Shown piece after piece: positions 1 through 63,321 of a stretch of 64,000 nt of DNA. The notes beneath the pieces are model-generated. The model was not told where the DNA came from. It searched no databases and saw only the letters and a program-made list of their open reading frames with translations. The stretch's first letter is position 1. Every line of letters starts with the position of its first letter. Origin of the DNA: an uncultured Fibrobacteria bacterium (GTDB lineage: Bacteria > Fibrobacterota > Fibrobacteria > UBA11236); contig OY970309.1 of the NCBI GenBank assembly GCA_963716395.1, forward strand, positions 1,120,001 to 1,184,000. Reading direction: 5' to 3'. The translations under genes and the position numbers were made by a program.

Positions 1-661
1 AACGTGCTATCCGGCTCAGCGCTGAAAGTCCACAATTCACCGGTTCCATTTATCACCTTTCCAGTTGCTTTTCCGGTCGGGGAAAATGATTCGGAAAAAA
101 TTAGGCGCTGGTTCCCTTTACTCGGATCTTCTTCGCGGGTCGCCTGTTCTTTCTTAGACGCAAATTACCGTTGGGAAAATACTCTTCGTCCGAAATAATT
201 AACCCTTTATGGCATTGCGCCACCAATTTCTTATTGCCATTGGGCCACCATTCCTGCCATAAGCCCTCTTCTTGGCCGGAGTCGTTGTAGTTTTTGATTA
301 AAGATGGGTGGCCGGGGGAGTAAAAGGATTCGGACTCTCCATTTAGTTTTCCGTTACTATAATTCTTTCGAGAAATGATATTTCCAAGAGTGTCCCATAT
401 TAAACACTGGCCCTCTTTTTTACCATCAATAAAAAAGACACTATCATGTATTCTCCATTTTTTATCATAGCTTAACAGCATCCCGTTCCTAATTTTTCCT
501 TTATATTCAGAAACAAAATTAAAATTTTTAGATAATCCGCAATCAACTCTTAATTCGATTTCACCATTAGTGGTTTTGTGCTTTTCAATTTGTCCACATT
601 CATAAGCGCATACGAAACAAGGGAAAACAAATATCCCAAAAAAGGAAACACGAATTACCAT
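1..661 (-). CDS. MORN-repeat (YwqK-like) partner/immunity protein, cassette U5; 3' end beyond window, frameshifted near 100-150
   Basis: ORF 101..661: hydrophobic N-terminus, YECG..VDC Cys pair, DGKKEG/NGKLNG MORN-like repeats, conserved YSPGHPSLIKNYNDSGQEEGLWQEWWPNG block; A-type tail continues to base 1. Confidence 0.75.
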
Positions 662-1014
662 AAGCTATCCAAATTATTTTGGGCCAGTAAGGCTCTAAAC
701 GCGATTAAAAAATCTGCATTCGCTTCTTGTGGGTCTCCATTTTCATCAACAAATCCAACTGCATTGCCAAAATCCTGAATCCGCTCTATCCCCGCCTTCA
801 GCGCATCCGCTTTTTGTTTTACAGACACCGGATCTTCATCACCCGATCCGGGTGGCGGCAAAGGCAATTGCGACACAAAGCGCAACACCCATTTGAGAAT
901 GTGATTGCCGTTCGGTGATTTCGAAGCCCCCTCGGTAGATTTCAATATATCAAGTATGACCGGAAAATCCGCATCTTCGCGTGTTTGCATCAAGGTGATG
1001 ATGGCCTGGGCCAA
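655..1014 (-). CDS. Orphan effector C-terminal cassette U5 (conserved 75 aa + variable tip IERIQDFGNAVG...NNLDSLW)
   Basis: Matches effector C-terminal segment at 6462-6686; overlaps ATG of downstream partner gene. Confidence 0.75.
   Translation of the reverse strand: MAQAIITLMQTREDADFPVILDILKSTEGASKSPNGNHILKWVLRFVSQLPLPPPGSGDEDPVSVKQKADALKAGIERIQDFGNAVGFVDENGDPQEANADFLIAFRALLAQNNLDSLW
790..1014. repeat. ~225-bp direct repeat, copy 1 of 6
   Basis: ccccgccttcagcgcatcc...gatgatggcctgggccaa recurs at ~1907, 3035, 4180, 5300, 6462. Confidence 0.95.
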
Positions 1015-1016
1015 AC

Positions 1017-1794
1017 CTATTGCAGCAACTTTTCCACGGTTTGTGAGTCGGCCTCCTGATTGCTCACTTCGAAGCCGTCTTTATAAACTTCGTGCAAGAC
1101 GCGATGTTTGTGCGTGACGCTGTCCGGCTTGGCATCGAATAGCCACGTTTCTCCTGTTCCATTCACCACCCTGCCGGTAGATTTTCCCGCGGGTGAAAAA
1201 GTTTCATAGAAAACCACCTTCGCGTCTTCCTTTGAGGGCTTCGGCTGATACGCTGTTTTTTCCTTTAATCGCAAAACTCCGTTTGGAAAGTATTCTTCAT
1301 CCTCAATCACTTCACCTTTATGACATTGCGCCACCAATTTCTTATTGCCGTTGGGCCACCATTCCTGCCATACAGCCCTCTTCCTGACCCGAGTCGTTGT
1401 AGTTTTTGATTAAAGATGGGTGGCCGGGGGAATAGTAATTTTCATCCTTGCCGATTTGGATTCCGTTTCGATGTTCCCTGCGTCCAACAATATTACCAAG
1501 GGAATCCCAGAACAATGAAACCCCATTTTCTTTTCCATTGATATAAAAACTGCTGTCTTTCTTTCTCCAAAGACTATCATAGTCAACTTGGAAACCATTC
1601 TGAACTTCTCCTTTATACTCTAAAACTGAAATTACGTCGTATTCTTTTTTACCGGAACAGTCGACTTCTAATTCCACTTTCCCATAACGTCGCTTGAAAA
1701 TTTTTTTCTCTCCGCAAGTATAAGAAGATGGTTTACATTGCCCAAAACTGAGGAAAACAAATAAAATCAAAATTAGTCGATTACTGAATCCCAT
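1017..1794 (-). CDS. MORN-repeat partner/immunity protein, cassette U4 (B-type tail); single +1 frameshift at ~1373
   Basis: ORFs 1342..1893 (from MGFSNRLIL) and 1017..1337 join if the extra C at ~1373 (tacagccc vs taagccc in other copies) is removed. Confidence 0.75.
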
Positions 1795-2131
1795 TTTCTT
1801 CGAGCAAATTATGGAATTGGTGCAAAAACCCAGCGTTCCGGTTTTGTTTTCTTCTGTTTTCATCAAAGTACCCTTCACCCTCGCCAAAATCATTAATCCG
1901 TTTAATCCCCGCCTTCAGCGCATCCGTTTTTTGTTTTACAGACACCGGATCTTCATCACCCGATCCGGGTGGCGGCAAAGGCAATTGCGACACAAAGCGC
2001 AACACCCATTTGAGAATGTGATTGCCGTTCGGTGATTTCGAAGCCCCCTCGGTAGATTTCAATATATCGAGTATGACCGGAAAATCCGCATCTTCGCGTG
2101 TTTGCATCAAGGTGATGATGGCTTGGGCCAA
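1781..2131 (-). CDS. Orphan effector C-terminal cassette U4 (tip IKRINDFGEGEG...EENGIQ)
   Basis: C-terminal part of ORF 1781..2287; TTG at 2131 equivalent to other cassettes. Confidence 0.72.
   Translation of the reverse strand: MAQAIITLMQTREDADFPVILDILKSTEGASKSPNGNHILKWVLRFVSQLPLPPPGSGDEDPVSVKQKTDALKAGIKRINDFGEGEGYFDENRRKQNRNAGFLHQFHNLLEENGIQ
1907..2131. repeat. ~225-bp direct repeat, copy 2
   Basis: Near-identical to 790-1014. Confidence 0.95.
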
Positions 2132-2133
2132 AT

Positions 2134-2921
2134 CTATTGCAGCAACTTTTCCACGGTTTTGGCGTCGGCCTGTGCGTTGTGGACTTCGCAGGCCATTCTT
2201 GAAGATTTCTTGCTCCACCCTATAACGCTTTAACGTGCTATCCGGCTCAGCGCTGAAAGTCCACAATTCACCGGTTCCATTTATCACCTTTCCAGTTGCT
2301 TTTCCGGTCGGGGAAAATGATTCGGAAAAAATTAGGCGCTTGCGTTCCCTTTACTCGGATCTTCTTCGCGGGTCGCCTGTTCTTTCTAGACGCAAAATTA
2401 CCGTTGGGAAAATACTCTTCGTCCGAAATAATTAACCCTTTATGACATTGCGCCACCAATTTCTTATTGCCATTGGGCCACCATTCCTGCCATAAGCCCT
2501 CTTCTTGGCCGGAGTCGTTGTAGTTTTTGATTAAAGATGGGTGGCCGGGGGAATAGTAATTTTCATCCTTGCCGATTTGGATTCCGTTTCGATGATTCCC
2601 TGCGTCCAACAATATTACCAAGGGAATCCCAGAACAATGAAACCCCATTTTCTTTTCCATTGATATAAAAACTGCTGTCTTTCTTTCTCCAAAGACTATC
2701 ATAGTGAACTTGGAATACCATTCTGAACTTCTCCTTTATATTCTAAAACTGAAATTACGTCGTATTCGTTTTTTAGCCGGAACAGTCGACTTCTAATTCC
2801 ACTTTCCCATAACGTCGCTTGAAAATTTTTTTCTCTCCGCAAGTATAAGAAGATGGTTTACATTGCCCAAAACAATGAGGAAAACAAATAAAATCAAAAT
2901 TAGTCGATTACTGAATCCCAT
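2134..2921 (-). pseudogene. MORN-repeat partner, cassette U3 (N-domain as U4, A-type tail); multiple indels, possibly sequence errors
   Basis: 2553-2921 is nearly identical to 1432-1794 with scattered insertions; tail resembles 1-210 and 5527-5850. Confidence 0.65.
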
Positions 2922-3259
2922 TTTCTTCGAGCAAATTATGGAATTGGTGCAAAAAACCCAGCGTTCCGGTTTTGTTTTCTTCTGTTTTCATCAAAGTACC
3001 CTTCACCCTCGCCAAAATCATTAATCCGTTTAATCCCCGCCTTCAGCGCATCCGCTTTTTGTTTTACAGACACCGGATCTTCATCACCCGATCCGGGTGG
3101 CGGCAAAGGCAATTGCGACACAAAGCGCAACACCCATTTGAGAATGTGATTGCCGTTCGGAGATTTCGAAGCCCCCTCGGTAGATTTCAATATATCGAGT
3201 ATGACCGGAAAATCCGCATCTTCGCGTGTTTGCATCAAGGTGATGATGGCTTGGGCCAA
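2908..3259 (-). CDS. Orphan effector C-terminal cassette U3 (tip duplicate of U4; +1 in an A-run near 2951-2956)
   Basis: ORF 2936..3259; equals U4 if one A is removed. Confidence 0.65.
3035..3259. repeat. ~225-bp direct repeat, copy 3
   Basis: Near-identical to 790-1014. Confidence 0.95.
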
Positions 3260-3261
3260 AT

Positions 3262-4054
3262 CTATTGCAGCAACTTTTCCACGGTTTTGGCGTCGGCCTC
3301 CTGCATTGCTCGACTTCGAAGCCGTCTTTATAAACTTCGTGCAAGACGCGATAACGCTTTATGCGTGAAGCTGTCCGGCTTGGCACTCGAATAGCCACGT
3401 TTCTCCTGTTCCATTCACCACCTTGCCGGTAGATTTTCCGGTCGGGTGAAAAAGTTTCATAGAAAACCAGGCGCTTCGCGTCTTCCTTTGACTCGGGTCT
3501 TCGTCGCTGATACGCCTGTTTTTTCCTTTAGATCGCAAAACTACCGTTTGGAAAGTATTCTTCATCCTCAATCACTTCACCCTTTATGACATTGCGCCAC
3601 CAATTTCTTATTGCCATTGGGCCACCATTCCTGCCATAAGCCCTCTTCTTGGCCCGAGTCGTTGTAATGTGATTAATGTGCTCGGCTTATTGGGGGCGTA
3701 AAATGTTGTGCGAACTCCGACGGGATATCCATTTACATAATGGGTTTTTTCAACAATATTTCCAAGTGAATCCCAGACTAAACAATTTCCGTTCTTTTTC
3801 CCCTCCACATAGAAGCAACTATCGTGTTTTATCCATCGGACAGGCCCTGAATTTGTTTTGTTAAAGCTCATGGATATCCCGCTTCGCCGGCCATTTTGAT
3901 ATTCGGATACGAATTTCGTATTCGTGTCGAGTTTACAGTTCACACGTAATTCAACTGTTCCATATGGTTTTGAATATGTTGCCCTGGTACCGCATTCATA
4001 TTCATCCGAAAAACAGATTTGAAAAAGAAGAGCGATAATCAGCAACCTGATCAT
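3262..4054 (-). CDS. MORN-repeat partner, cassette U2 (distinct N-domain, A/B hybrid tail); frameshifted after ~3668
   Basis: ORF 3608..4054 MIRLLIIALLFQICFSDEYECG..VNC; tail fragments in ORFs 3359..3571 and 3084..3398. Confidence 0.7.
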
Positions 4055-4404
4055 AAACCACTCAAACCATTTTTTTGCATGAGGTCAGCAAAATCTGATA
4101 AAAAGTCCTCGTCTTTATCTCGATATTTATCTGTTGGTTTAAGATTTTTTGCGAGCCCGTAATTATTTAACAACTGTTTCCCCGCCTTCAGCGCATCCGC
4201 TTTTTGTTTTACGGCCACCGGATCTTCATCACCCGATCCGGGTGGCGGCAAAGGCAATTGCGACACAAAGCGCAACACCCATTTGAGAATGTGATTGCCG
4301 TTCGGTGATTTCGAAGCCCCCTCGGTAGATTTCAATATATCGAGTATGACCGGAAAATCCGCATCTTCGCGTGTTTGCATCAAGGTGATGATGGCCTGGG
4401 CCAA
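4051..4404 (-). CDS. Orphan effector C-terminal cassette U2 (tip KQLLNNYGLAK...KNGLSGL)
   Basis: Intact 117-aa ORF; ATGA overlap with partner gene. Confidence 0.75.
   Translation of the reverse strand: MAQAIITLMQTREDADFPVILDILKSTEGASKSPNGNHILKWVLRFVSQLPLPPPGSGDEDPVAVKQKADALKAGKQLLNNYGLAKNLKPTDKYRDKDEDFLSDFADLMQKNGLSGL
4180..4404. repeat. ~225-bp direct repeat, copy 4
   Basis: Near-identical to 790-1014. Confidence 0.95.
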
Positions 4405-4406
4405 AC

Positions 4407-5177
4407 CTATTGCAGCAACTTTTCCACGGTTTGTGAGTCGGCCTCCTGATTGCTCACTTCGAAGCCGTCTTTATAAACTTCGTGCAAGACGCGATGTTTG
4501 TGCGTGACGCTGTCCGGCTTGGCATCGAATAGCCACGTTTCTCCTGTTCCATTCACCACCCTGCCGGTAGATTTTCCCGCGGGTGAAAAAGTTTCATAGA
4601 AAACCACCTTCGCGTCTTCCTTTGAGGGCTTCGGCTGATACGCTGTTTTTTCCTTTAATCGCAAAACTCCGTTTGGAAAGTATTCTTCGTCCTCAATCAC
4701 TTCACCTTTATGACATTGCGCCACCAATTTCTTATTGCCATTGGGCCACCATTCCTGCCATAAGCCCTCTTCTTGGCCGGAGTCGTTGTAGTTTTTGATT
4801 AAAGATGGGTGGCCGGGGGAATAGTAGAATTCTTTCTTCCCAATCTGTACTCCCATACGATGATTTTCGCGGCCAACGAGGTTGCCGAGCGTATCCCAAT
4901 AAAGACATTCGCCGTTTTCTTTTCCGTCCACAAAAAAACTGCTGTCTTTTTTGCGCCAAAGACTATCGTAATGTATTGCAATGCCATTTTGATTATCGTT
5001 TTTAAATTCTAATACGGATATATTGTTGTCTGTTTTATCAGACAAAAAGCTACAATCGACTTGCAGTTTTACTAGGCCGTAGGGTTTTTTAACAGTATTC
5101 GATTCGCCACATGAAAATGGGTTACCAGTATTCGCGTTTATCATGGATGCTGCGATTAAATAAAACAGAAATTTCAT
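4407..5177 (-). CDS. MORN-repeat partner/immunity protein, cassette U1, intact 256 aa (B-type tail)
   Basis: Signal peptide MKFLFYLIAASMINA, FSCG..VDC Cys pair, repeated G(K/V)xxG..YY..G MORN-variant motifs. Confidence 0.85.
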   Translation of the reverse strand: MKFLFYLIAASMINANTGNPFSCGESNTVKKPYGLVKLQVDCSFLSDKTDNNISVLEFKNDNQNGIAIHYDSLWRKKDSSFFVDGKENGECLYWDTLGNLVGRENHRMGVQIGKKEFYYSPGHPSLIKNYNDSGQEEGLWQEWWPNGNKKLVAQCHKGEVIEDEEYFPNGVLRLKEKTAYQPKPSKEDAKVVFYETFSPAGKSTGRVVNGTGETWLFDAKPDSVTHKHRVLHEVYKDGFEVSNQEADSQTVEKLLQ

Positions 5178-5524
5178 TTTATCGAATTTGTTTCTAAAAG
5201 TATGTGAATGTGCGCCAGAAAAACGTCGTTTCGTTTCGCCGGATCCCCTCTTTCGTCTACATATCCTTCACCTTTCCCGAACTTTTCAATCCGCTCTATC
5301 CCCGCCTTCAGCGCATCCGCTTTTTGTTTTACAGACACCGGATCTTCATCACCCGATCCGGGTGGCGGCAAAGGCAATTGCGACACAAAGCGCAACACCC
5401 ATTTGAGAATGTGATTGCCGTTCGGAGATTTCGAAGCCCCCTCGGTAGATTTCAATATATCGAGTATGACCGGAAAATCCGCATCTTCGCGTGTTTGCAT
5501 CAAGGTGATGATGGCCTGGGCCAA
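5174..5524 (-). CDS. Orphan effector C-terminal cassette U1 (tip IERIEKFGKGEG...ETNSIK)
   Basis: C-terminal part of ORF 5174..5683; ATGA overlap with 4407..5177. Confidence 0.75.
   Translation of the reverse strand: MAQAIITLMQTREDADFPVILDILKSTEGASKSPNGNHILKWVLRFVSQLPLPPPGSGDEDPVSVKQKADALKAGIERIEKFGKGEGYVDERGDPAKRNDVFLAHIHILLETNSIK
5300..5524. repeat. ~225-bp direct repeat, copy 5
   Basis: Near-identical to 790-1014. Confidence 0.95.
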
Positions 5525-5526
5525 AT

Positions 5527-6343
5527 CTATTGCAGCAACTTTTCCACGGTTTTGGCGTCGGCCTGTGCGTTGCTGCACTCGCAGGCCATTCTTGAAGATT
5601 TCTTGCTCGACGCTATAACGCTTTATGCGTGAGCTATCCGGCTCAGCGCTGAAAGTCCACAATTCACCGGTTCCATTTATCACTTTTCCAGTTGATTTTC
5701 CGGTCGGGGAAAATGATTCGGAAAAAATTAGGCGCTTCGCGTCTCCCTTTGACTCGGATCTTCTTCGCGGGTACGCCTGTTCTTTCCTTTAGATCGCAAA
5801 TTACCGTTTGGAAAATATTCTTCGTCCGAAATAACTTAACCCTTTATGGCATTGCGCCACCAATTTCTTATTGCCATTGGGCCACCATTCCTGCCATAAG
5901 CCCTCTTCTTGACCCGAGTCGTTGTAGTTTTTGATTAAAGATGGGTGGCCGGGGGAATAGTAATTCTTCACTCCTTGCCGATTTGGATTCCGTTTCGATA
6001 ATTCCCTTTCCGCACGATACTTGACCCAAGCGTATCCCAGAACAATCAAATTCCATTTTTTTTACCGTTAAGATAAAAACTGCTGTCGTTTTTTTAGTCG
6101 CGCTATAAGACTATCATAGTGAACTGGCAATACCATTTTGAATCCGCCTTTGATATTCGAAAACCGAAATTATGTTATCCTCTAATTAGTCTGCAATCGA
6201 CGCGAAGCTCCACTTCGCCATAGGAACGTGCTTGAACTTTTTCTTTTTCTCCGCAAGTATAAGTTTGCATGTGCAGATAGTTTGAGATGACTAACACAGG
6301 AAAAACATAAAGCCTTAGATTAATCGAGCTATCTTAATCCCAT
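5527..6343 (-). pseudogene. Cognate MORN-repeat partner of the full-length effector (U0), heavily frameshifted as given; start approximate
   Basis: Recognisable pieces: ..TCGEK..YGEVELRVDC.., YSPGHPSLIKNY block at 5846-5956, mostly A-type tail. Confidence 0.6.
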
Positions 6344-8997
6344 TCTCTTTGAGTAGATTATGAAATTCGGATACAAAAAACCGGCATTTGCAGTCCTGCT
6401 CTTTATTGTTCTCATCGAACATTTACCCCTTCGCCCGCTCCAAATTCTTAATCCGCTTTATCCCCGCCTTCAGCGCATCCGCTTTTTGTTTTACAGACAC
6501 CGGATCTTCATCACCCGATCCGGGTGGCGGCAAAGGCAATTGCGACACAAAGCGCAACACCCATTTGAGAATGTGATTGCCGTTCGGTGATTTCGAAGCC
6601 CCCTCGGTAGATTTCAATATATCGAGTATGACCGGAAAATCCGCATCTTCGCGTGTTTGCATCAAGGTGATGATGGCCTGGGCCAAACCTTCGGGAGGAA
6701 CACTTTTATAAATGGTTTGGCGCAGAGGAGCGCCCACAATTTGCTCTTTCACGATGGCTAAATCATGCAGATTTTCCGACAGCCAGTGTTTAAAATTGCT
6801 CACCCGATTGATGGCATAATCGGCGCCCATGGCTAGGGTTATTTTCCGATTCCGCGACTAAGGCGAAGCTATAGTTCTTGTACGCCGTGAAGGCGTCGTC
6901 GATTTCCTTCACATAATGAGAATCGACGGAGTACAGCAAATGCCCTAAAAATTCGCAGCCTTGCTTGGCGTCGACTTCCCAGGTCAAACCGCTGCCGCCG
7001 CCCAAACCCCAAGCCAGGCTCCAGGCAAAATGAAAACGAAACCGCCCGGCACTATAACTCACATGAAAGGATAAGTCGGCCGCAGCGCCGGCCGTGCCTT
7101 TCAGTTCGCCTTCGATCTCGGCCAAATCCGCAAATTCTTGGTGCGCGTCCGGACTCCATTGCGCCGAGAAGGTTATGCCGGCCGTGCCTTGCACGCCGGC
7201 CACCGCATGCACATCGGCTTTGGCCGAAGTTTCACTTTTGGACTTCGATTCCTGGTTGTCGGATTTCTTGTCCTGGCTCAAATCCACGGCCGGAAAGGAA
7301 ATGCAGCCGTTGGCCGATAGGCCCACGAACAATCCGGCTTTGCCGTCTATGCAGATCCGCACCAGGCATTGACCGTTGTTCTCGCGGCAAGAATTTTGGG
7401 CTTTGGGATTGCACAAAGTGGGCAGCAAATCCAATCCTTCGCGCTGGGGCAGAAAAATCTTGCCTGAAAGTTTGCCCTCAAACAAGGCGAAAGACGCGTC
7501 GCCCGAAGCCTGCAAGGAAATTTTTTTGTCTTTGAGATCAAATTCCGCTTTTCCGCTATAACCCAGGGCATAACGCCCGAGGGCCGCTTCGGGGGTGAAC
7601 TGAAACACATCGTTAGGGTTGGTTTTTTGATCCGACTTTCGCGGCCATTTCCAGACGCCGCCGACGACAGGTTCGCTTTCAAACAACTTGGCCTTCAGTT
7701 TCCCTTTCCATAGGGATTTGTCCTCCCCGTCACTTTTATTTCGCTTCAGCAATTTGTCCAGGCGCTTCTGCAAGGATTGATCCGAGGCCTTGACCCATTT
7801 CCCGGGAATTTTGCGGCCGTCTTGGCGCCAAGCCGCAGGCACGTGCACGAAATCCGTCGGCTGGCCCCAACGCGGGTTTTTCTGCACGGTCAACAATTCA
7901 TCCAAACCTTTTTCGACATCGCCGCCGGGCTTGCCTTCGAACAGTGCTTCCCATTCTTTCCGCACCTTTTCCAATTCCTGGGTGCGCGCTTTGGAATCGC
8001 TTTGCTTCCAGGCCTCGGCGGTTTTGCCCCGCAAAGCCTGGGATTTGTTCACATGGGTCGAAAAGGCATTGAAGTCCTCCTGCACTTCCAACATCAGGTA
8101 TTCTTCATTCCGCGGACTATAAAAAATGCAGCCATCAAAATCATCCTCGGTGATTTTCAACCCCCCGCTCTTCACTTCGAGCTTGGGCGAGGATTTTTTG
8201 GCCTTGAAGTAGAACGCATCGCCCGGCTTCAGCGGACCCATGCGCGTTTTTTCCGGCACACACCATTTGGCCACGGCGGCATGGTCGTTGCGTTTTTTCC
8301 CCACGGTTCCGGAATAGGTATTCACCATTTCATCCGATCCGCTTTGGCCTTTGCGGAATAGTTCGAAATGAATGAGATCGCCGGGCATGAGCCCGTCGGT
8401 ATCGACTTTGAAATGCACGATGTCGCCGATGGCGGCTTCGGTGAGAATGCTTTCTGAACTGCCGGGCTTGGTATCGTCTTCGATGTAAGCAAAACCCGGG
8501 TTCAAAAGCGCCGGTTCCGCCTCTTGGCTTTGCGCCGCCGCTGCATCCGCATCCTCGGACTTTTTCCTTTTAGGGTTGGCGCGGGCCAAGGCGCGCGTAT
8601 AGGCCCAATACAGGGCGTGCACGGCATGGTCGAGATGCGAGCCGGGAGCGACCACCAGCCACGATTCCCGGTGGTGCGGAATTTCGTGGGCGAGAAGGTG
8701 AAGGGGAGAATCTTCGGGGCGGCGCGGATATCCCGTGACGCGGGGAGGTCCGGTGCGGTACAACTCTTCCAACTCGTTGCGGTTCAACCTTTGCAAAACC
8801 CTTTCGAGGTCCAGCTGCGTCTGGTTTTTCAGCCAGGCCGGGCATTCCTTCGGCAGCCTGGGACAGGGGCCGAGGTAGTGAAATCCCCGTATGCGCGGGC
8901 TGCCCCCCAGGTAACGGCAAGGTTTCCAGGGGCAATCTTTACAGCAAGGCGCCGGGTAGGGCAAAGCTTCGGAAGGTACGGAAGCGGTTTCAGGCAT
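6315..8997 (-). CDS. Large putative polymorphic effector/toxin (~890 codons if frameshifts near 6843 and 6380-6440 are repaired); end approximate
   Basis: ORF 6790..8997 (735 aa) joins ORF 6423..6830 by removing one T from the run at 6842-6845 (..AESE-ITLAMGADY..); the C-terminus carries the 225-bp repeat and its own tip; SD-like GAAGG upstream of ATG. Confidence 0.7.
6462..6686. repeat. ~225-bp direct repeat, copy 6 (inside full-length effector)
   Basis: Same repeat, in frame after ..KSVPPEG. Confidence 0.95.
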
Positions 8998-9139
8998 GGC
9001 CCTTCATTTCCTCTAAACGGCCGAACATCTGCTCCGACAATCTATGATCCTTTTATTCACCCGGGCCCTCGGAAATGGGAATCAATTGCGCCGATTTGGA
9101 ATCCTAAACGACTTGGGTTACCGATCCATCGCGCATCTT

Positions 9140-9331
9140 TCACACGGCCTGCTCCACCTTGTCTTCCTGGGTCAAGTCGGCCGCGAAAAGCTCATCATCG
9201 GGATTCACCTTTTTCGGGTGACGGCTGACCAGACGGATATTTGCAGGGTAGGCGGACAATTCTTTGGCCAGCGGCGAACCGATGGAGCCACCGGCCCCCA
9301 GAATGGTTTGTCTTGCTTGCGTTTGCGCCAT
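9140..9331 (-). pseudogene. Truncated NAD-dependent epimerase/dehydratase (N-terminal Rossmann fragment)
   Basis: QTILGAGGSIGSPLAKEL..IRLVSR..ADLT..VEQAV, then stop after 63 aa. Confidence 0.7.
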
Positions 9332-11403: not shown

Positions 11404-12285
11404 ATGCGCCGCCAACTCGGCTTTTTGTTGCTCGAAGCCTTTCGCGGCCTGCGGGCGAACCGCTTTCTTTCCGTCACCTCGATCATCACCATCGGCATTT
11501 GCAGCGCGGTGCTGGCGGTGCTGCTGTGCGGCCTTTCGCTGGTTTGGTCGCTGGACGCGGCGCGCGGCGGAGCGGCCGTGTCGCTGCGTGTGTTCACCAA
11601 GCCCGATGCCGAAGACAGTGCCGGTCTGGCGCATTTGCAGGCGGAGCTGCTGCGCTTCGGCGGCTTCGATTCAGTGGTGTTCGTCAGCAAAGACCAAGCG
11701 CTGCTCGAATTCCGGCGCGAGTTCGGCGACGAGATGCTGCAATATCTCGACGCCAATCCCCTGCCGCCTTCGTATTTGCTGTACCCGTCCGAAAAACCGC
11801 TTTCCGCCGCGCGTGTGCGCGAACTGCGCCAGCGGATTCTGCTCTTCCCCGAAGTCGAAGAGGTTTCCGGCAACGCCGAGCATTTGCAATGGCTCGATCG
11901 CTGGCGGCTGCCGCTGCAAGCGGGCTCCTTTCTGCTGCTGGCGTTCGTGGGCGGCGCCCTGGCGCTGATCGTGCACAACGCCGTGAAGCTCAACCTGTAC
12001 GCGCGCCGGGCTCTGGTCGAAAACATGAAATATTGCGGTGCTTCCGAGGCGTTCATTCTCACGCCCTTCGTGCTCGAAGGCGTGCTGCTCGGTCTGGGCG
12101 GCAGTCTGCTGGGCGTGGTCTGCCTGATCGGCCTGTTGCATGCGGGGCGGCTTTTGGCGCCGGATTTGTTGCAGTCAACCCATACGGCTCGGTTGTCGGC
12201 GGCGCTGATGGGGGCCGCGGCCGGCATCGCCTTGTTGTCCAGCATGCGCACGGTGCGCGCCTTTTTGCGGGGAAACGCCGATTGA
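11404..12285 (+). CDS. ftsX: Cell division permease FtsX
   Basis: EAFRGLRANRFLS, FVSKDQAL, NPLPPSY, MKYCGAS..FILTPFVLEG motifs; four TM segments. Confidence 0.9.
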   Translation: MRRQLGFLLLEAFRGLRANRFLSVTSIITIGICSAVLAVLLCGLSLVWSLDAARGGAAVSLRVFTKPDAEDSAGLAHLQAELLRFGGFDSVVFVSKDQALLEFRREFGDEMLQYLDANPLPPSYLLYPSEKPLSAARVRELRQRILLFPEVEEVSGNAEHLQWLDRWRLPLQAGSFLLLAFVGGALALIVHNAVKLNLYARRALVENMKYCGASEAFILTPFVLEGVLLGLGGSLLGVVCLIGLLHAGRLLAPDLLQSTHTARLSAALMGAAAGIALLSSMRTVRAFLRGNAD

Positions 12286-13433
12286 AGGGATTATGGCTCG
12301 TCGTCTTGCTCGGCATCGCCGGCAACCTGCGCGATTACGATCGCGAAATCACGCACCAACGCCAAGAACTCGACGCCCTGCGCAGCCAATTGGAGGCCGG
12401 GCAAAAAGAATTGGCTGCGCTCAAGGCGCGCAAATCGGCCACACTGGAAGAATTGGATCGCCTGTCGGGCCATATCGCCCTGACCCAACGCTACCTCCGG
12501 CAATTGCAGGTCCTGGAACAACAGTTGCAGCAATCCGTCGCGGCCACGCGGCAATCCCTCGACAGCATCGACCGCCGCCTGCAGTTGCGGCAGCGCGTCA
12601 TGGCGCAGCGCGTGCGCCTTCTCTTCATGGCGGGGCCGCCCGAAAACCTGTTGCTCGCGCCCCTGGGCGAAGGCGATTTCTTCCAGCGCGCCTACCTCGT
12701 GAAACGCATCGTGCGCTACGATCACACGCTGGCGGAACAGTGCCGCCGCGACCGCGATCTCAAACGGCAGACCCTGGCCCAGCTCGCGGCGCGGCGCGCC
12801 GAGTTGGTCCAATTCCAGCAGCGCCGGCGGAGCGAGATGGTGCGTTACACGCGCGCGCAGAACGACGAAGAGAACACCTTGCACGCACTGGAGCACAGCG
12901 AAAGCGCCAAGGCCGAGACCCTGCGGCAACTTCAGGAAAACGCGCGCGCGCTCAACGACATCATCGCCGCTCTGGAAAAGCGGCGGCGCGAAGAACGGCA
13001 ACGCAGCCGGCGCAAGGCCCTGGTGCTCGAGAAGAGCACGCATTATTGCGCGCCGGTGGACGGGCCGGTGGTATCGCGTTACGGCATGCAATACCACGCC
13101 TCTCTGGGCATCAGCACCCGCAACCTCGGCATCGAAATGGAGGCGGCGCCGGGCACGCCCGTGCGCGCCGCCGTTTCCGGAGAAGTGGCTTTGATTACGC
13201 GCATTCCCGGCTACGGTCCCGGTGTCATTCTCGACAACGGTTCGGGTTACTTCACCATCTACGCCAATCTCGGCGCCATCCGGGTGCGTCTCGGGGAGCG
13301 CGTCAAAACCTGCCAGGAAATCGCCGCGGTGGCGTCAGATGCCGCCAATGTTTATTTCGAAGTGCGACAAGGCACACGCACTTTGGATCCCACCGCCTGG
13401 CTGAAAGGCGAAGAGGAGAACGCTTCTAAATAG
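12282..13433 (+). CDS. envC: EnvC-like murein hydrolase activator (coiled coil + degenerate M23)
   Basis: TTG overlapping ftsX stop; long coiled coil; NLGIEM, GYFTIYANL, VYFEVR..LDP lacking the Zn-binding His residues. Confidence 0.8.
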   Translation: MKGLWLVVLLGIAGNLRDYDREITHQRQELDALRSQLEAGQKELAALKARKSATLEELDRLSGHIALTQRYLRQLQVLEQQLQQSVAATRQSLDSIDRRLQLRQRVMAQRVRLLFMAGPPENLLLAPLGEGDFFQRAYLVKRIVRYDHTLAEQCRRDRDLKRQTLAQLAARRAELVQFQQRRRSEMVRYTRAQNDEENTLHALEHSESAKAETLRQLQENARALNDIIAALEKRRREERQRSRRKALVLEKSTHYCAPVDGPVVSRYGMQYHASLGISTRNLGIEMEAAPGTPVRAAVSGEVALITRIPGYGPGVILDNGSGYFTIYANLGAIRVRLGERVKTCQEIAAVASDAANVYFEVRQGTRTLDPTAWLKGEEENASK

Positions 13434-60983: not shown

Positions 60984-62813
60984 ATGGGCAAACCCGCGGC
61001 GCGATTGACCGACAGCACAGCGCATGGCGGCCTGGTCACCGGCCCGGGCTGCCCGACCGTACTCATCGGCAAAATGCCGGCCGCCACCATGGGCGACATG
61101 CACGTTTGCCCCATGCTGACCCCGGGCGTGCCGCCCATTCCCCATGTGGGCGGGCCCATCACCTTGGGCAGCACCGGCGTATTCATCGGCAAGAAACCCG
61201 CGGCGCGCTTGGGCGATATGTGCGTGTGTGTAGGTCCGCCCTCGACCATCATCATGGGATGCATGACCGTGCTCATCGGCGAGGTGGGCAGCGGCTCGCA
61301 GGCCGCCAGCGCGGCCTCGGCATTAGCGGCGCAAGCGGCTAAAGCCACGGGCCCCAAGTCTTTGAAAGCGGGAGATCCTCCGCCGGTGCCGGAAGTGGCC
61401 ACGGAAAACCACATCATCGACTGCGAATTCACCGACGCGGCGGGCAAACCCTTGGCCGGCGTGGGCTATCGCATCAAAGACCCCAACGGAATGGAAATCG
61501 CGGGCGGCAGCACGGTGGAAGGCAAAGGGTATCATCCGGGTTACGCCAAAGCCGGGAGCTTCGAGATTCACGTTTTGTCGCTGAAGAACGCCAAGTGGAA
61601 GAAGAGCAAGGTGAAGATGGGCGAGGCCGCCGAGTTTTCGGTAGAAGCCGACTTGTTCGGAGACCACCCCGAAGTGTATGTGAACATCTACCAGTGCCGG
61701 GGCGGCCTGCGGCGCTGGGTGGCCAGCCAGGTGTTGCCGGTAAAAGGCGGCAAGGCCGAAGGCAAATGGCAGCCGAGTTATGAAGAACTGGGGGTCGAAG
61801 AAAATGACGCGGACGCGGCCGACGCTACGGATGCGGCGCCCCCGACCTATTCGGATCCGGCCACCTATGAATTCGTGTGCGACGGCAACGGCGTCATCGC
61901 GTTATCGGATGACATGCATTTTGTCGACGACCTGGAGATCGAGTTGTTGGACGCGAAGAACAAGGGTGTTCCGAATGCGGATTACGAAGTGGAATTCCCC
62001 AGCGGCGAGGTGAAAAAGGGAAAACTGGACGGAAGCGGCAAGGCGAAGCTGACCGAGGTGGAGCCGAGCCATGTCAAGATTCGGTTTCCGGGTGAAGACG
62101 AAAAGCAGAAGGAAAAGGAGAAAGCGGCGGGTAGTCCATCAAATTCATCAAGTGGGAAGAACAAAAACGAGACAGATGAAAAAGAAGACACTGGCGCGGC
62201 AAAGAAAAAACCGCCTGACAAGTTGGATATGCGCTTCCCGTTAGACGTGGACTTGCGCGAGATCATTAAAACAAAATTTTCATACCGCGAGGGAGAAAGG
62301 CAATTTGGAGCGCCCAGGAATGGTGGCAAGAGAGCTCATGCGGGTTGCGATTTATATGCCCCACTTGGAACGCCGATTTATGCAGTCGCGGACGGGACAT
62401 TCGCCAGATATGCAAATTTTTATGATCAAACCTGGGAAATCGAAATTAATCATGGGGAATTTACAGTTAGGTATGGTGAAGTGCAACCTCCTTGGAATCA
62501 GGCGTCCGAAATGTACGATTACCCTCCAGATCAAAACCAATGTAAAGGCATGCCCCATTTATTTAAACGAGATGAAATAATTAGCAAAGGTCAGTTGATT
62601 GGTTGGATTGGAGAATTACGCAAAGTTGATCACAATGGAAATGTTAAAACTATTAGACCTATGCTTCATTTTGAAATGTATTATAATCAAAGCCAAGGCC
62701 TTTTGACCGACTATTCAAATCTCACTTACGACTTTGTATCAGAAAAAAAATATATGCGAAGAAAGGACTTGCTCAATCCGGCAACGTTTTTGGATCAATC
62801 TTCGGATGCTTGA
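60984..62813 (+). CDS. PAAR-domain effector with C-terminal M23 peptidase toxin domain
   Basis: KPAARLTD, MPAATMGD, KPAARLGD; C-terminal RAHAGCDLYAP.GTPIYAVADG, VRYGEV, MLHFEMY; GC falls after ~62130. Confidence 0.88.
   Translation: MGKPAARLTDSTAHGGLVTGPGCPTVLIGKMPAATMGDMHVCPMLTPGVPPIPHVGGPITLGSTGVFIGKKPAARLGDMCVCVGPPSTIIMGCMTVLIGEVGSGSQAASAASALAAQAAKATGPKSLKAGDPPPVPEVATENHIIDCEFTDAAGKPLAGVGYRIKDPNGMEIAGGSTVEGKGYHPGYAKAGSFEIHVLSLKNAKWKKSKVKMGEAAEFSVEADLFGDHPEVYVNIYQCRGGLRRWVASQVLPVKGGKAEGKWQPSYEELGVEENDADAADATDAAPPTYSDPATYEFVCDGNGVIALSDDMHFVDDLEIELLDAKNKGVPNADYEVEFPSGEVKKGKLDGSGKAKLTEVEPSHVKIRFPGEDEKQKEKEKAAGSPSNSSSGKNKNETDEKEDTGAAKKKPPDKLDMRFPLDVDLREIIKTKFSYREGERQFGAPRNGGKRAHAGCDLYAPLGTPIYAVADGTFARYANFYDQTWEIEINHGEFTVRYGEVQPPWNQASEMYDYPPDQNQCKGMPHLFKRDEIISKGQLIGWIGELRKVDHNGNVKTIRPMLHFEMYYNQSQGLLTDYSNLTYDFVSEKKYMRRKDLLNPATFLDQSSDA
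62037..62131 (+). repeat. ~95-bp direct repeat preceding the toxin domain, copy 1
   Basis: ggcaaggcgaagctgaccgaggtggagccgagccatgtcaagattcggtttcc..aagcagaaggaaaaggagaa.gcggcgg. Confidence 0.93.
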
Positions 62814-62814
62814 T

Positions 62815-63321
62815 ATGCACAGACCCTTTAAAAAGGTTGTAATTATAATTACAGGAGCACTTTATATCTTGGCCAATGCAGCCGATTATTCTTTCAAAAT
62901 TCTTTCTAAAGACAATCCTGATCACCTCAAAGAAATTAAAAGGATGTACGTCGAAGGGAAATTAAAGCCCGAAGAAAATAATAGTTTCGGAGATGGGAAG
63001 AGAACAGATCTGGGCTATGAAATAATTTCAGAAAAACCCGATCTATGGTGTTTATGTTTTGCTTATTATCCGGGTCCAAGTCCGGATTCAAATCGGGTGC
63101 TTGACGCAATCGAGTGGAAGTCGAAAAGAGGAATTTTCATTGATATTACAGATTGTGCTTCCAAGCTCAATATCAACGAGATAATTCCGGCACTAGTTAC
63201 CAAAAAAAACGGAAAGACTATTGTTCTTAGGGCATGGGTAGGCAATCCCATGACTGAAAAATTCGAGGCCGTCCCAAAATCGGCTGTAAACTGTAGAGAC
63301 GAAAACGAAGACGAAGATTAA
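62815..63321 (+). CDS. Putative periplasmic immunity protein for the M23 effector
   Basis: Starts 2 nt after the effector stop; signal peptide; low GC; Cys residues; LRAW..EKFE..VNC end. Confidence 0.7.
   Translation: MHRPFKKVVIIITGALYILANAADYSFKILSKDNPDHLKEIKRMYVEGKLKPEENNSFGDGKRTDLGYEIISEKPDLWCLCFAYYPGPSPDSNRVLDAIEWKSKRGIFIDITDCASKLNINEIIPALVTKKNGKTIVLRAWVGNPMTEKFEAVPKSAVNCRDENEDED

Follow-up and report, generated by a model that had tools for sequence, protein, structure and literature searches.

We analyzed a stretch of 64,000 nucleotides from an uncultured soil bacterium of the Fibrobacteria (the window; positions 1120001-1184000 of a single-contig genome of 3.75 Mb), in which positions 1-8997 contain the gene of a putative secreted effector and, behind it, a tandem array of cassettes that each repeat the 3′ end of this gene together with the gene of a putative exported partner protein. 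All the features of this locus are present on the minus strand: a 735-amino-acid open frame (6790-8997), then a second frame (6423-6830), and then six tandem units of 1113-1162 nt. The first frame encodes the effector body, in which a Cys-rich N-terminal region, a coiled part and a part with long beta-strands can be told apart, and is a member of the family profile described below (E = 1.4e-222). The second, of 135 amino acids, continues the effector out of frame with the first and encodes a second variable segment, a conserved block and a truncated variable tip; the two frames overlap at 6790-6830, and an additional base within a run of A there causes the frameshift of this main gene.

Repeat units and cassettes

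A repeat finder identified six copies of a 300-nt repeat (784-1083, 1901-2200, 3029-3328, 4174-4473, 5294-5593 and 6456-6755) at intervals of 1117-1162 nt, and this search and an alignment of the units place a conserved block of ~75 amino acids (GLAQAIITLMQ...ALKAG) at 6462-6689 in the main gene, with the other copies at 5300-5527, 4180-4407, 3035-3262, 1907-2134 and 790-1017. Each unit consists of this block, a variable tip of 39-46 amino acids, and the gene of a MORN/YwqK-like partner with a putative signal peptide, a variable N-domain and a conserved C-part. In the orphan units, homology to the main gene begins at GLAQ, right behind the stop codon of the preceding partner. The array extends 2.4 kb further beyond the start of the window (units A6 and A7 and a truncated A8), and a paralogous locus at 382.7-389.6 kb of the same genome contains a main gene and four units. 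The second variable segment (VR1, 6740-6865; hereafter the pre-block segment) lies immediately before the conserved block and is, besides the tip, the only stretch in which many differences separate the two paralogous main genes.

Our alignment of 11 full units, all from this genome, demonstrated that columns 1-210, the conserved block, are 97-100% identical, that columns 241-630, which take in the tip and a spacer as well as the putative signal sequence and partner N-domain, are 28-60% identical, and that columns 781-930 are 82-99% identical, with the remaining partner gene sequence present in two allelic forms. The guanine plus cytosine content is 59.8% in the genome, 55.7% in the main gene, 51% in the block and 47-49% in the partner C-part, and 33-45% in the tip and 34-43% in the spacer and partner N-domain. 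An earlier, sequence-only reading of this DNA had described the tip and partner N-domain as a single AT-rich module of 470-500 bp; we find this module, at a slightly greater length of ~500-560 bp when counted in alignment columns.

That reading had also proposed that the tips are homologous variants and not different toxin domains, and our analysis bears this out. The three tips that it gave as examples are present at 658-789 (IERIQDFG...), 1784-1906 (IKRINDFG...) and 5177-5299 (IERIEKFG...), and the tips are 41-44 amino acids long in the four unbroken copies of the window. They align with one another and with tips of other genera in one helix-loop-helix pattern, and in the AlphaFold model of an orthologue described below the tip forms the last two helices of an all-helical C-terminal domain. 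The tip at 4054-4179 departs from the motif proposed earlier, yet it aligns with the others. Beyond this genome, we found a tip in 28 of 61 representatives that match a profile of the C-terminal part.

Within the window, one of the six cassettes, A1, is fully unbroken (5177-5527 and 4407-5177). Its 41-amino-acid tip (5177-5299) has its stop codon at 5174-5176, which the ATG of the partner gene (4407-5177) overlaps, and the encoded partner of 256 amino acids, the only unbroken partner in the window, contains a hydrophobic N-terminus, a Cys hairpin (5052-5111), the variable N-domain and MORN-like repeats. The tip of the main gene (unit A0, 6426-6461) reaches an in-frame stop after 12 amino acids, with the homologous rest readable to ~6335, and the partner of this unit (~5516-6330) is shattered over three frames. 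Cassette A2 (3251-4179) has the most divergent tip (42 amino acids, 4054-4179) and a partner that is open for 148 amino acids (3611-4054) before several frameshifts. Cassette A3 (2123-3034) is a decayed copy of A4, with a tip that is frameshifted after 32 amino acids (2939-3034) and a partner fragmented by several frameshifts. In A4 (1006-1906), a 41-amino-acid tip (1784-1906) is followed by a partner that starts from a Met at 1794, is open for 150 amino acids and, after one frameshift, resumes at 1017-1337; in A5 (1-789), a 44-amino-acid tip (658-789) is followed by a partner (101-661) that is open for 186 amino acids and, after one frameshift, continues past the start of the window. Counting the paralogous locus as well, an unbroken tip and an unbroken partner occur together in 2 of the 12 units with tips of this first effector subtype (type 1), i.e., in A1 (4407-5527) and in B1 of the paralogous locus.

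Promoter-like and terminator-like sites in positions 1-9300 were not more frequent than in shuffled sequence (15 versus 11.4±3.2 and 15 versus 13.1±4.0, respectively). Many plus-strand frames of 60-140 amino acids recur in every unit (1-6700); these are mirror images of coding sequence conserved on the minus strand, not genes. The next gene past the far end of the array, on the same strand (genome positions 1116753-1115203), is a frame of 517 amino acids with short tandem peptide repeats (ISIANSMFSATGALSLTGAG-like).

Effector family, proposed delivery and putative exported partner

A word-index search with the effector returned the protein itself, a 43%-identical paralogue of 865 amino acids in the same genome and one weak match, and a search of the ESM Atlas returned only unnamed Bacteroidota clusters at 0.84-0.85, which is under the level at which we count a match. 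Among related genomes, homologues of the effector are present in 13 of the 40 other genomes searched, and in none of the 11 searched genomes of the same genus. A profile built from 13 homologues and run against 1.84 billion representative sequences identified 999 cluster representatives at E ≤ 1e-3, of which 309 were at E ≤ 1e-30; the name given to one homologue assigns it to a Fibrobacteria metagenome-assembled genome.

Pfam domains were counted in the 33 long matches to this profile, with one protein (P0109) counted under both Hcp and OmpA, so that the counts sum to 34. Two members are fused to Hcp (P0033 and P0109), one to a VgrG domain set (P0118) and one to DUF4280 (P0090); 10 contain OmpA and/or PG_binding_1, three contain LysM, one contains Amidase_2, M23 and SH3, one contains SLT, and 14 have no Pfam domain. 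The remaining member (P0079) has a match to VasX_N at 25.9 bits, below the cut-off of 27, and the window effector itself has none to this family. A PAAR domain is carried by a 46%-identical relative (P0191) that ends in a tip, and a tip also ends one of the Hcp-fused members. On the strength of these fusions to Hcp, VgrG, PAAR or DUF4280, we class the family as type VI secretion system (T6SS) effectors, and its domain content places it among those that would act in the periplasm or on the envelope. The genome under study also encodes T6SS components, with TssC/VipB at 436 bits, Hcp at 112 bits and VgrG at 247 bits, all over the curated cut-offs.

The gene of the MORN/YwqK-like partner is located behind the effector gene in 10 of the 15 loci that we examined in related genomes, and in all four close metagenome loci, which were themselves found via the partner. 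In two loci, an effector homologue with a tip is followed by a different gene, namely one for a 176-amino-acid lipoprotein-like protein with no family match and one for an AraC-like regulator (loci L035 in genome G014 and L032 in genome G021). The partners of the window score 16.8 (A1) and 24.3 bits on the Pfam family MORN_2, under its gathering score of 29.6 bits; orthologous partners score 30.4 bits (in genome G013, 49% identical to a window partner) and 77.3 bits (in the more distant G015), several homologues are named YwqK antitoxin by JGI, and among solved structures the MORN domain of SET7/9 is the sole relative. The sequence-only reading had claimed a signal peptide and a conserved Cys pair for the partners, and the sequences fit both: the N-terminus is hydrophobic, as judged by eye, and cysteines C22 and C41, with 18 residues between them, are invariant in 32 of 32 aligned partners. 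We interpret the N-terminus as a probable export signal, and the Cys pair would fit an oxidizing compartment.

A protein of this kind could also be an exported accessory factor, i.e., an adhesin, anchor or co-effector that docks the effector C-terminus, instead of an immunity protein. MORN repeats are general binding modules, and one partner has a weak match to a Leptospira MORN adhesin family (22 bits, versus a cut-off of 250). However, the effector would be cytoplasmic until fired and the partner exported, so that the two would meet only in the periplasm of a recipient, which is the arrangement of immunity; in addition, the genes are ordered as in effector-immunity pairs, with a stop codon that overlaps the next start codon, and orphan arrays are typical of immunity genes according to PMC5361080. 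We therefore regard an accessory role as highly improbable.

The same genome contains a second effector subtype (type 2) of the same design, in two loci with their own orphan arrays (genome positions 3236202-3245483 and 1816986-1822019; L015, L016, L019 and L020). Their effectors, of 865 and 884 amino acids, are both open, and their units have a longer conserved block (~217 amino acids), shorter tips (25-32 amino acids) and MORN partners whose N-domains vary. Over its first 200 amino acids, the type-2 effector is 86% identical to the window effector. The Cys-rich N-terminal region of the latter also starts proteins of ~890 amino acids with a different C-terminal body in two other genomes (L037 in G024 and L038 in G017), each followed by genes for a membrane protein and a protein of ~270 amino acids; look-alikes of these two downstream genes are present behind a type-2 array of the genome under study (3242915-3244577), where such an effector is absent.

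Elsewhere in the window, on the plus strand, a 609-amino-acid protein with PAAR motifs and Peptidase_M23 (60984-62810) is probably another T6SS effector, and an overlapping frame of 195 amino acids with no family match (62734-63318) may be its immunity gene. A 644-amino-acid protein with a C-terminal Peptidase_M23 is encoded at 11499-13430, on the plus strand and 2.5 kb from the effector gene.

Structure models and divergence of the module

For structure prediction with AlphaFold2 we used an intact effector orthologue from genome G013 (residues 184-871, with an alignment of 70 rows). The model has a mean predicted local distance difference test score (pLDDT) of 69.6, with the all-helical C-terminal domain, tip included, at 84-98. 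The central region modelled alone reached a pLDDT of 76.6 and contains five antiparallel strands of ~25 residues each. In this beta region the hydrophobic moment at beta periodicity is higher (~1.1-1.5, versus 0.4-0.9), with the number of windows over threshold not beyond that in shuffled sequence, and its VIA-align rows include outer-membrane barrels and pore forms at large root-mean-square deviations, which is a hint of a membrane-type beta-sheet and no more.

The complex was predicted for the intact G013 pair, using the whole C-terminal domain of the effector (200 amino acids) and the mature partner (236 amino acids) with separate alignments. Three runs gave ipSAE interface scores of 0.80, 0.70 and 0.68 (median 0.70), against 0.01 for the best of three controls, with a partner pLDDT of at least 88 and at least 59% of the contacts in common between runs. 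In the calibration of the tool, the mark used was attained by 116 of 157 solved complexes and by 2 of 215 mismatched pairs, a calibration that is only roughly valid when alignments of one's own are used. As neither chain has a solved relative beyond the MORN domain of SET7/9, it is unlikely that this pass reproduces a known structure.

Of 29 effector residues predicted to contact the partner, 15 are located in the pre-block segment (model residues 530-572) and 12 in the tip, leaving 2 in the block, and the 42 contact residues of the partner are divided between the N-domain (24) and the C-part (18). The most confident contact pairs join tip residues with partner residues 40-90, and the contact segment before the block corresponds to the stretch (6740-6865) in which the paralogous main genes diverge. 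The sequence-only reading had suggested that the tip may decide which partner can recognize or neutralize the effector, with the activity possibly upstream. The placement of the tip against the partner N-domain and the near absence of block contacts agree with this lock-and-key proposal, and the part of it that does not stand is the tip as sole determinant, since the pre-block segment supplies more than half of the predicted effector contacts.

The contacts are also where these proteins vary. Across the effector family the entropy of contact positions is 3.45 bits, versus 2.73 bits for the others (p = 4e-8), and across the partner family it is 1.74 versus 1.35 bits (p = 0.002); for the eight readable tips of this genome it is 2.08 versus 1.31 bits (p = 0.002). 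Only 1 of 12 well-conserved tip positions is a contact, and the letters of the motif proposed earlier would thus be scaffold, with the variable positions between them as the predicted contacts.

Comparison of the cassettes of this genome with each other demonstrated that synonymous divergence (pS) is 0-0.04 in the block, 0.57-1.16 in the tips and 0.74-0.87 in the partner N-domains. Tips within this genome are 17-59% identical, i.e., as far apart as the tips of different genera. By these values the cores are old alleles located between homogenized flanks, and not fast-evolving copies. The ratio of non-synonymous to synonymous substitution rates (dN/dS, by the NG86 method), which had been proposed as a check for an excess of non-synonymous change in the tips, is 0.08-0.65 where it can be computed, and says nothing here because synonymous sites are saturated.

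Covariation between the two genes had also been proposed as a check. In six cassettes of this genome with identical flanks, the divergences of tip and N-domain correlate (r = 0.56-0.78, p = 0.02-0.004), and in a partial Mantel test of 10 intact pairs, with block and C-part controlled, tip and N-domain remain correlated (r = 0.49, p = 0.0016), while block and N-domain are not significantly so (r = 0.16); linkage alone could explain these correlations, since tip and partner are adjacent. In one cassette the second half of the N-domain is shared with another cassette and the tip and first half are different, so that some breakpoints must fall within the N-domain. Another genus (G047) has an orphan that shares this left boundary (PPEA...). 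These results support the view that the tip is inherited together with the partner N-domain, as a single AT-rich module flanked by near-identical sequence.

Readings of the locus and known systems

We consider it likely that this is a T6SS effector-immunity locus of an unnamed, widespread family, with a tandem array of orphan specificity cassettes. Of the ways in which its parts could work together, the lock-and-key reading is the one that our computations support best, with a key that would have two variable parts. The effector N-terminus would be a variable region for loading or anchoring, and the constant body, with its long amphipathic beta-hairpins, would probably attack the envelope of the target cell. 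The all-helical C-terminal domain would present a conserved core of 75 amino acids between two hypervariable segments, the pre-block segment and the last 40 residues, i.e., the tip, which is predicted to fold as two helices joined by a variable loop. The exported MORN/YwqK-like protein encoded downstream would set its variable N-domain against the tip and its C-part against the pre-block segment, and is most likely the periplasmic immunity protein. With the block and the partner C-part both conserved, the two may serve as homology arms on either side by which tip and partner N-domain are exchanged jointly, an exchange that would alter who is recognized and leave the activity of the effector unchanged.

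Several observations weigh against this reading. For the effector, no Pfam, NCBIfam or PDB sequence match was found with the whole protein or its C-terminal part, and no toxic domain was recognized; Foldseek returned no match at E ≤ 1e-3 for either effector model, and VIA-align reached Z-scores no higher than 7.2 (helical C-terminal domain, against generic helical repeats) and 6.8 (beta region), both in the chance range. Hcp, VgrG and PAAR domains are all absent from the window effector, as are T6SS genes from its neighborhood, so that its membership among T6SS effectors rests on homology. The predicted complex is that of an orthologue from another genus, 50% identical to a window cassette over block and tip; its controls were unrelated proteins, and with this tool close cousins of a true partner are expected to pass as well; and contact positions are surface positions, which are more variable in any case. 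dN/dS never exceeds 1 where it can be computed, and, besides the linkage noted above, tip divergence also correlates with that of the partner C-part (r = 0.60, 10 intact pairs). Lastly, both type-1 main genes are interrupted and 10 of the 12 type-1 cassettes contain frameshifts or stops, and in the type-2 loci with intact effectors the partner directly behind the main gene is damaged too, which is odd for an active toxin.

Either genuine decay or errors of assembly may account for these lesions. In the paralogous main gene there are two frameshifts, both in its own copy of the pre-block segment, the segment in which the frameshift of the window main gene also lies. The near-identical cassettes A3 and A4 differ by indels in their first 760 nt, some of them away from homopolymers. 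Over ~2.1 kb upstream, the two main genes differ by eight mismatches and no indel, which indicates a low general assembly error, and we weighed assembly error as the cause of all lesions against this indel-free stretch; a metagenome consensus drawn from a mixture of strains could still concentrate errors in the variable parts. Three contig sets from a single soil-metagenome study span the block and portions of the main gene outside the frameshift site (6790-6830), and are uninformative on the joints; among the sequencing runs listed for the locus, none was of RNA. As they stand, the type-1 copies of this genome look largely decayed, or mostly inactive.

The array could accordingly be read as having no present function, as the decaying remains of a tandem duplication of the effector 3′ end and immunity gene, with the correlation of tip and partner due to linkage. 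The lesions just described, including the indels that are not confined to homopolymers, are what such decay would leave, the family is missing from the 11 searched genomes of the same genus, and the low GC content suggests a foreign origin. Duplication and decay cannot, however, yield flanks of almost no synonymous divergence beside cores in which it is saturated, and these cores are as divergent as orthologues of other genera; two cassettes are wholly intact, another genus has an orphan with this boundary, and some lesions may be consensus errors of metagenome assembly. On balance, we think it unlikely that the array is such a remnant.

Non-lethal self-recognition, like that of IdsD/IdsE, is a further possibility, and one that we consider improbable. 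The pre-block segment and tip of the injected protein would together form an identity tag for the recipient's exported partner to read, and a mismatch would change behavior and not kill. A constant protein with short variable segments exactly at the predicted interface would suit such a role, as would the lack of a recognized toxin fold, and in IdsD and IdsE, according to PMC4471559, variable subdomains set allele-restricted binding. On the other side, relatives of the window effector are fused to peptidoglycan-binding or -cleaving domains and to T6SS spike parts, like antibacterial effectors, and the partner is a soluble exported repeat protein, whereas the Ids specificity subdomains are predicted, according to that paper, to span the membrane.

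Within the lock-and-key reading, the cassettes might further be a working store of recognition alleles, in which gene conversion between the block and the partner C-part switches the T6SS identity of the cell while the weapon stays the same. This would be a logic of silent cassettes like that of antigenic variation in pilE/pilS, used for kin discrimination, with a two-part code read by a periplasmic MORN-repeat protein. Both the store and this switching are doubtful; if true, cassette switching would link the biology of polymorphic toxins with silent-cassette variation systems.

Our analysis offers a probable function and delivery route for a large family with no name in the libraries (the 999 cluster representatives above), and points to exported MORN/YwqK-like proteins as putative periplasmic T6SS immunity proteins. 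It would also provide a compact model for the re-coding of specificity, in which ~40 effector residues and half an immunity gene, and not whole toxin domains, are exchanged, and the predicted interface names candidate specificity residues. In the literature that we searched (MORN/YwqK, immunity and T6SS; subscription journals and bioRxiv supplements were outside its scope), this effector family and its cassettes are not described.

Five known systems resemble the locus in part. YwqK of Bacillus subtilis, the antitoxin of the LXG toxin YwqJ, is a MORN_2-repeat protein encoded directly behind a polymorphic secreted protein, and the window partner resembles it in gene position and in its probable MORN_2-like repeats. 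YwqK serves a Gram-positive LXG toxin, whereas the window partner has a putative export signal and a disulfide-type Cys pair, is located behind a T6SS effector and scores under the Pfam cut-off. In the colicin E DNases and their Im proteins, homologous toxins and homologous immunity proteins owe their specificity to a small number of variable residues at the interface, set on a scaffold that is conserved. Their folds and delivery route differ from those proposed here, and colicins are not known to keep spare specificity modules in tandem.

Orphan arrays themselves are known from Vibrio cholerae, where, according to Kirchberger et al. 2017 (PMC5361080), a T6SS effector and its immunity gene are followed by a row of further immunity genes that were gained by transfer and homologous recombination, with old modules kept downstream. 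Compared with the arrays described there, the orphans of the window also retain the 3′ end of the effector gene, the variable core has coding sequence that is conserved on either side of it, and the units differ by a 40-amino-acid tip and half an immunity gene, not by a whole effector family. In this retention they are like the orphans of Rhs and contact-dependent inhibition (CDI) systems, which according to Zhang et al. 2012 (PMC3482391) are silent downstream cassettes made up of a fragment of conserved region, a variable C-terminus and a cognate protective gene. Those systems, in the same account, swap unrelated toxin domains, whereas the window tips are all homologous and too short for enzymes, and the constant body presumably carries the effector activity.

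IdsD and IdsE of Proteus mirabilis, as presented by Cardarelli et al. 2015 (PMC4471559), are a T6SS-exported protein and its partner with allele-restricted binding by short variable subdomains. This is a likeness of logic only, since the Ids variable regions are predicted to be membrane-spanning, whereas the window has a soluble, putatively exported MORN protein and tandem spare cassettes. By analogy, then, the locus appears closest in logic to allele-restricted pairs such as IdsD/IdsE or colicin DNase/Im.

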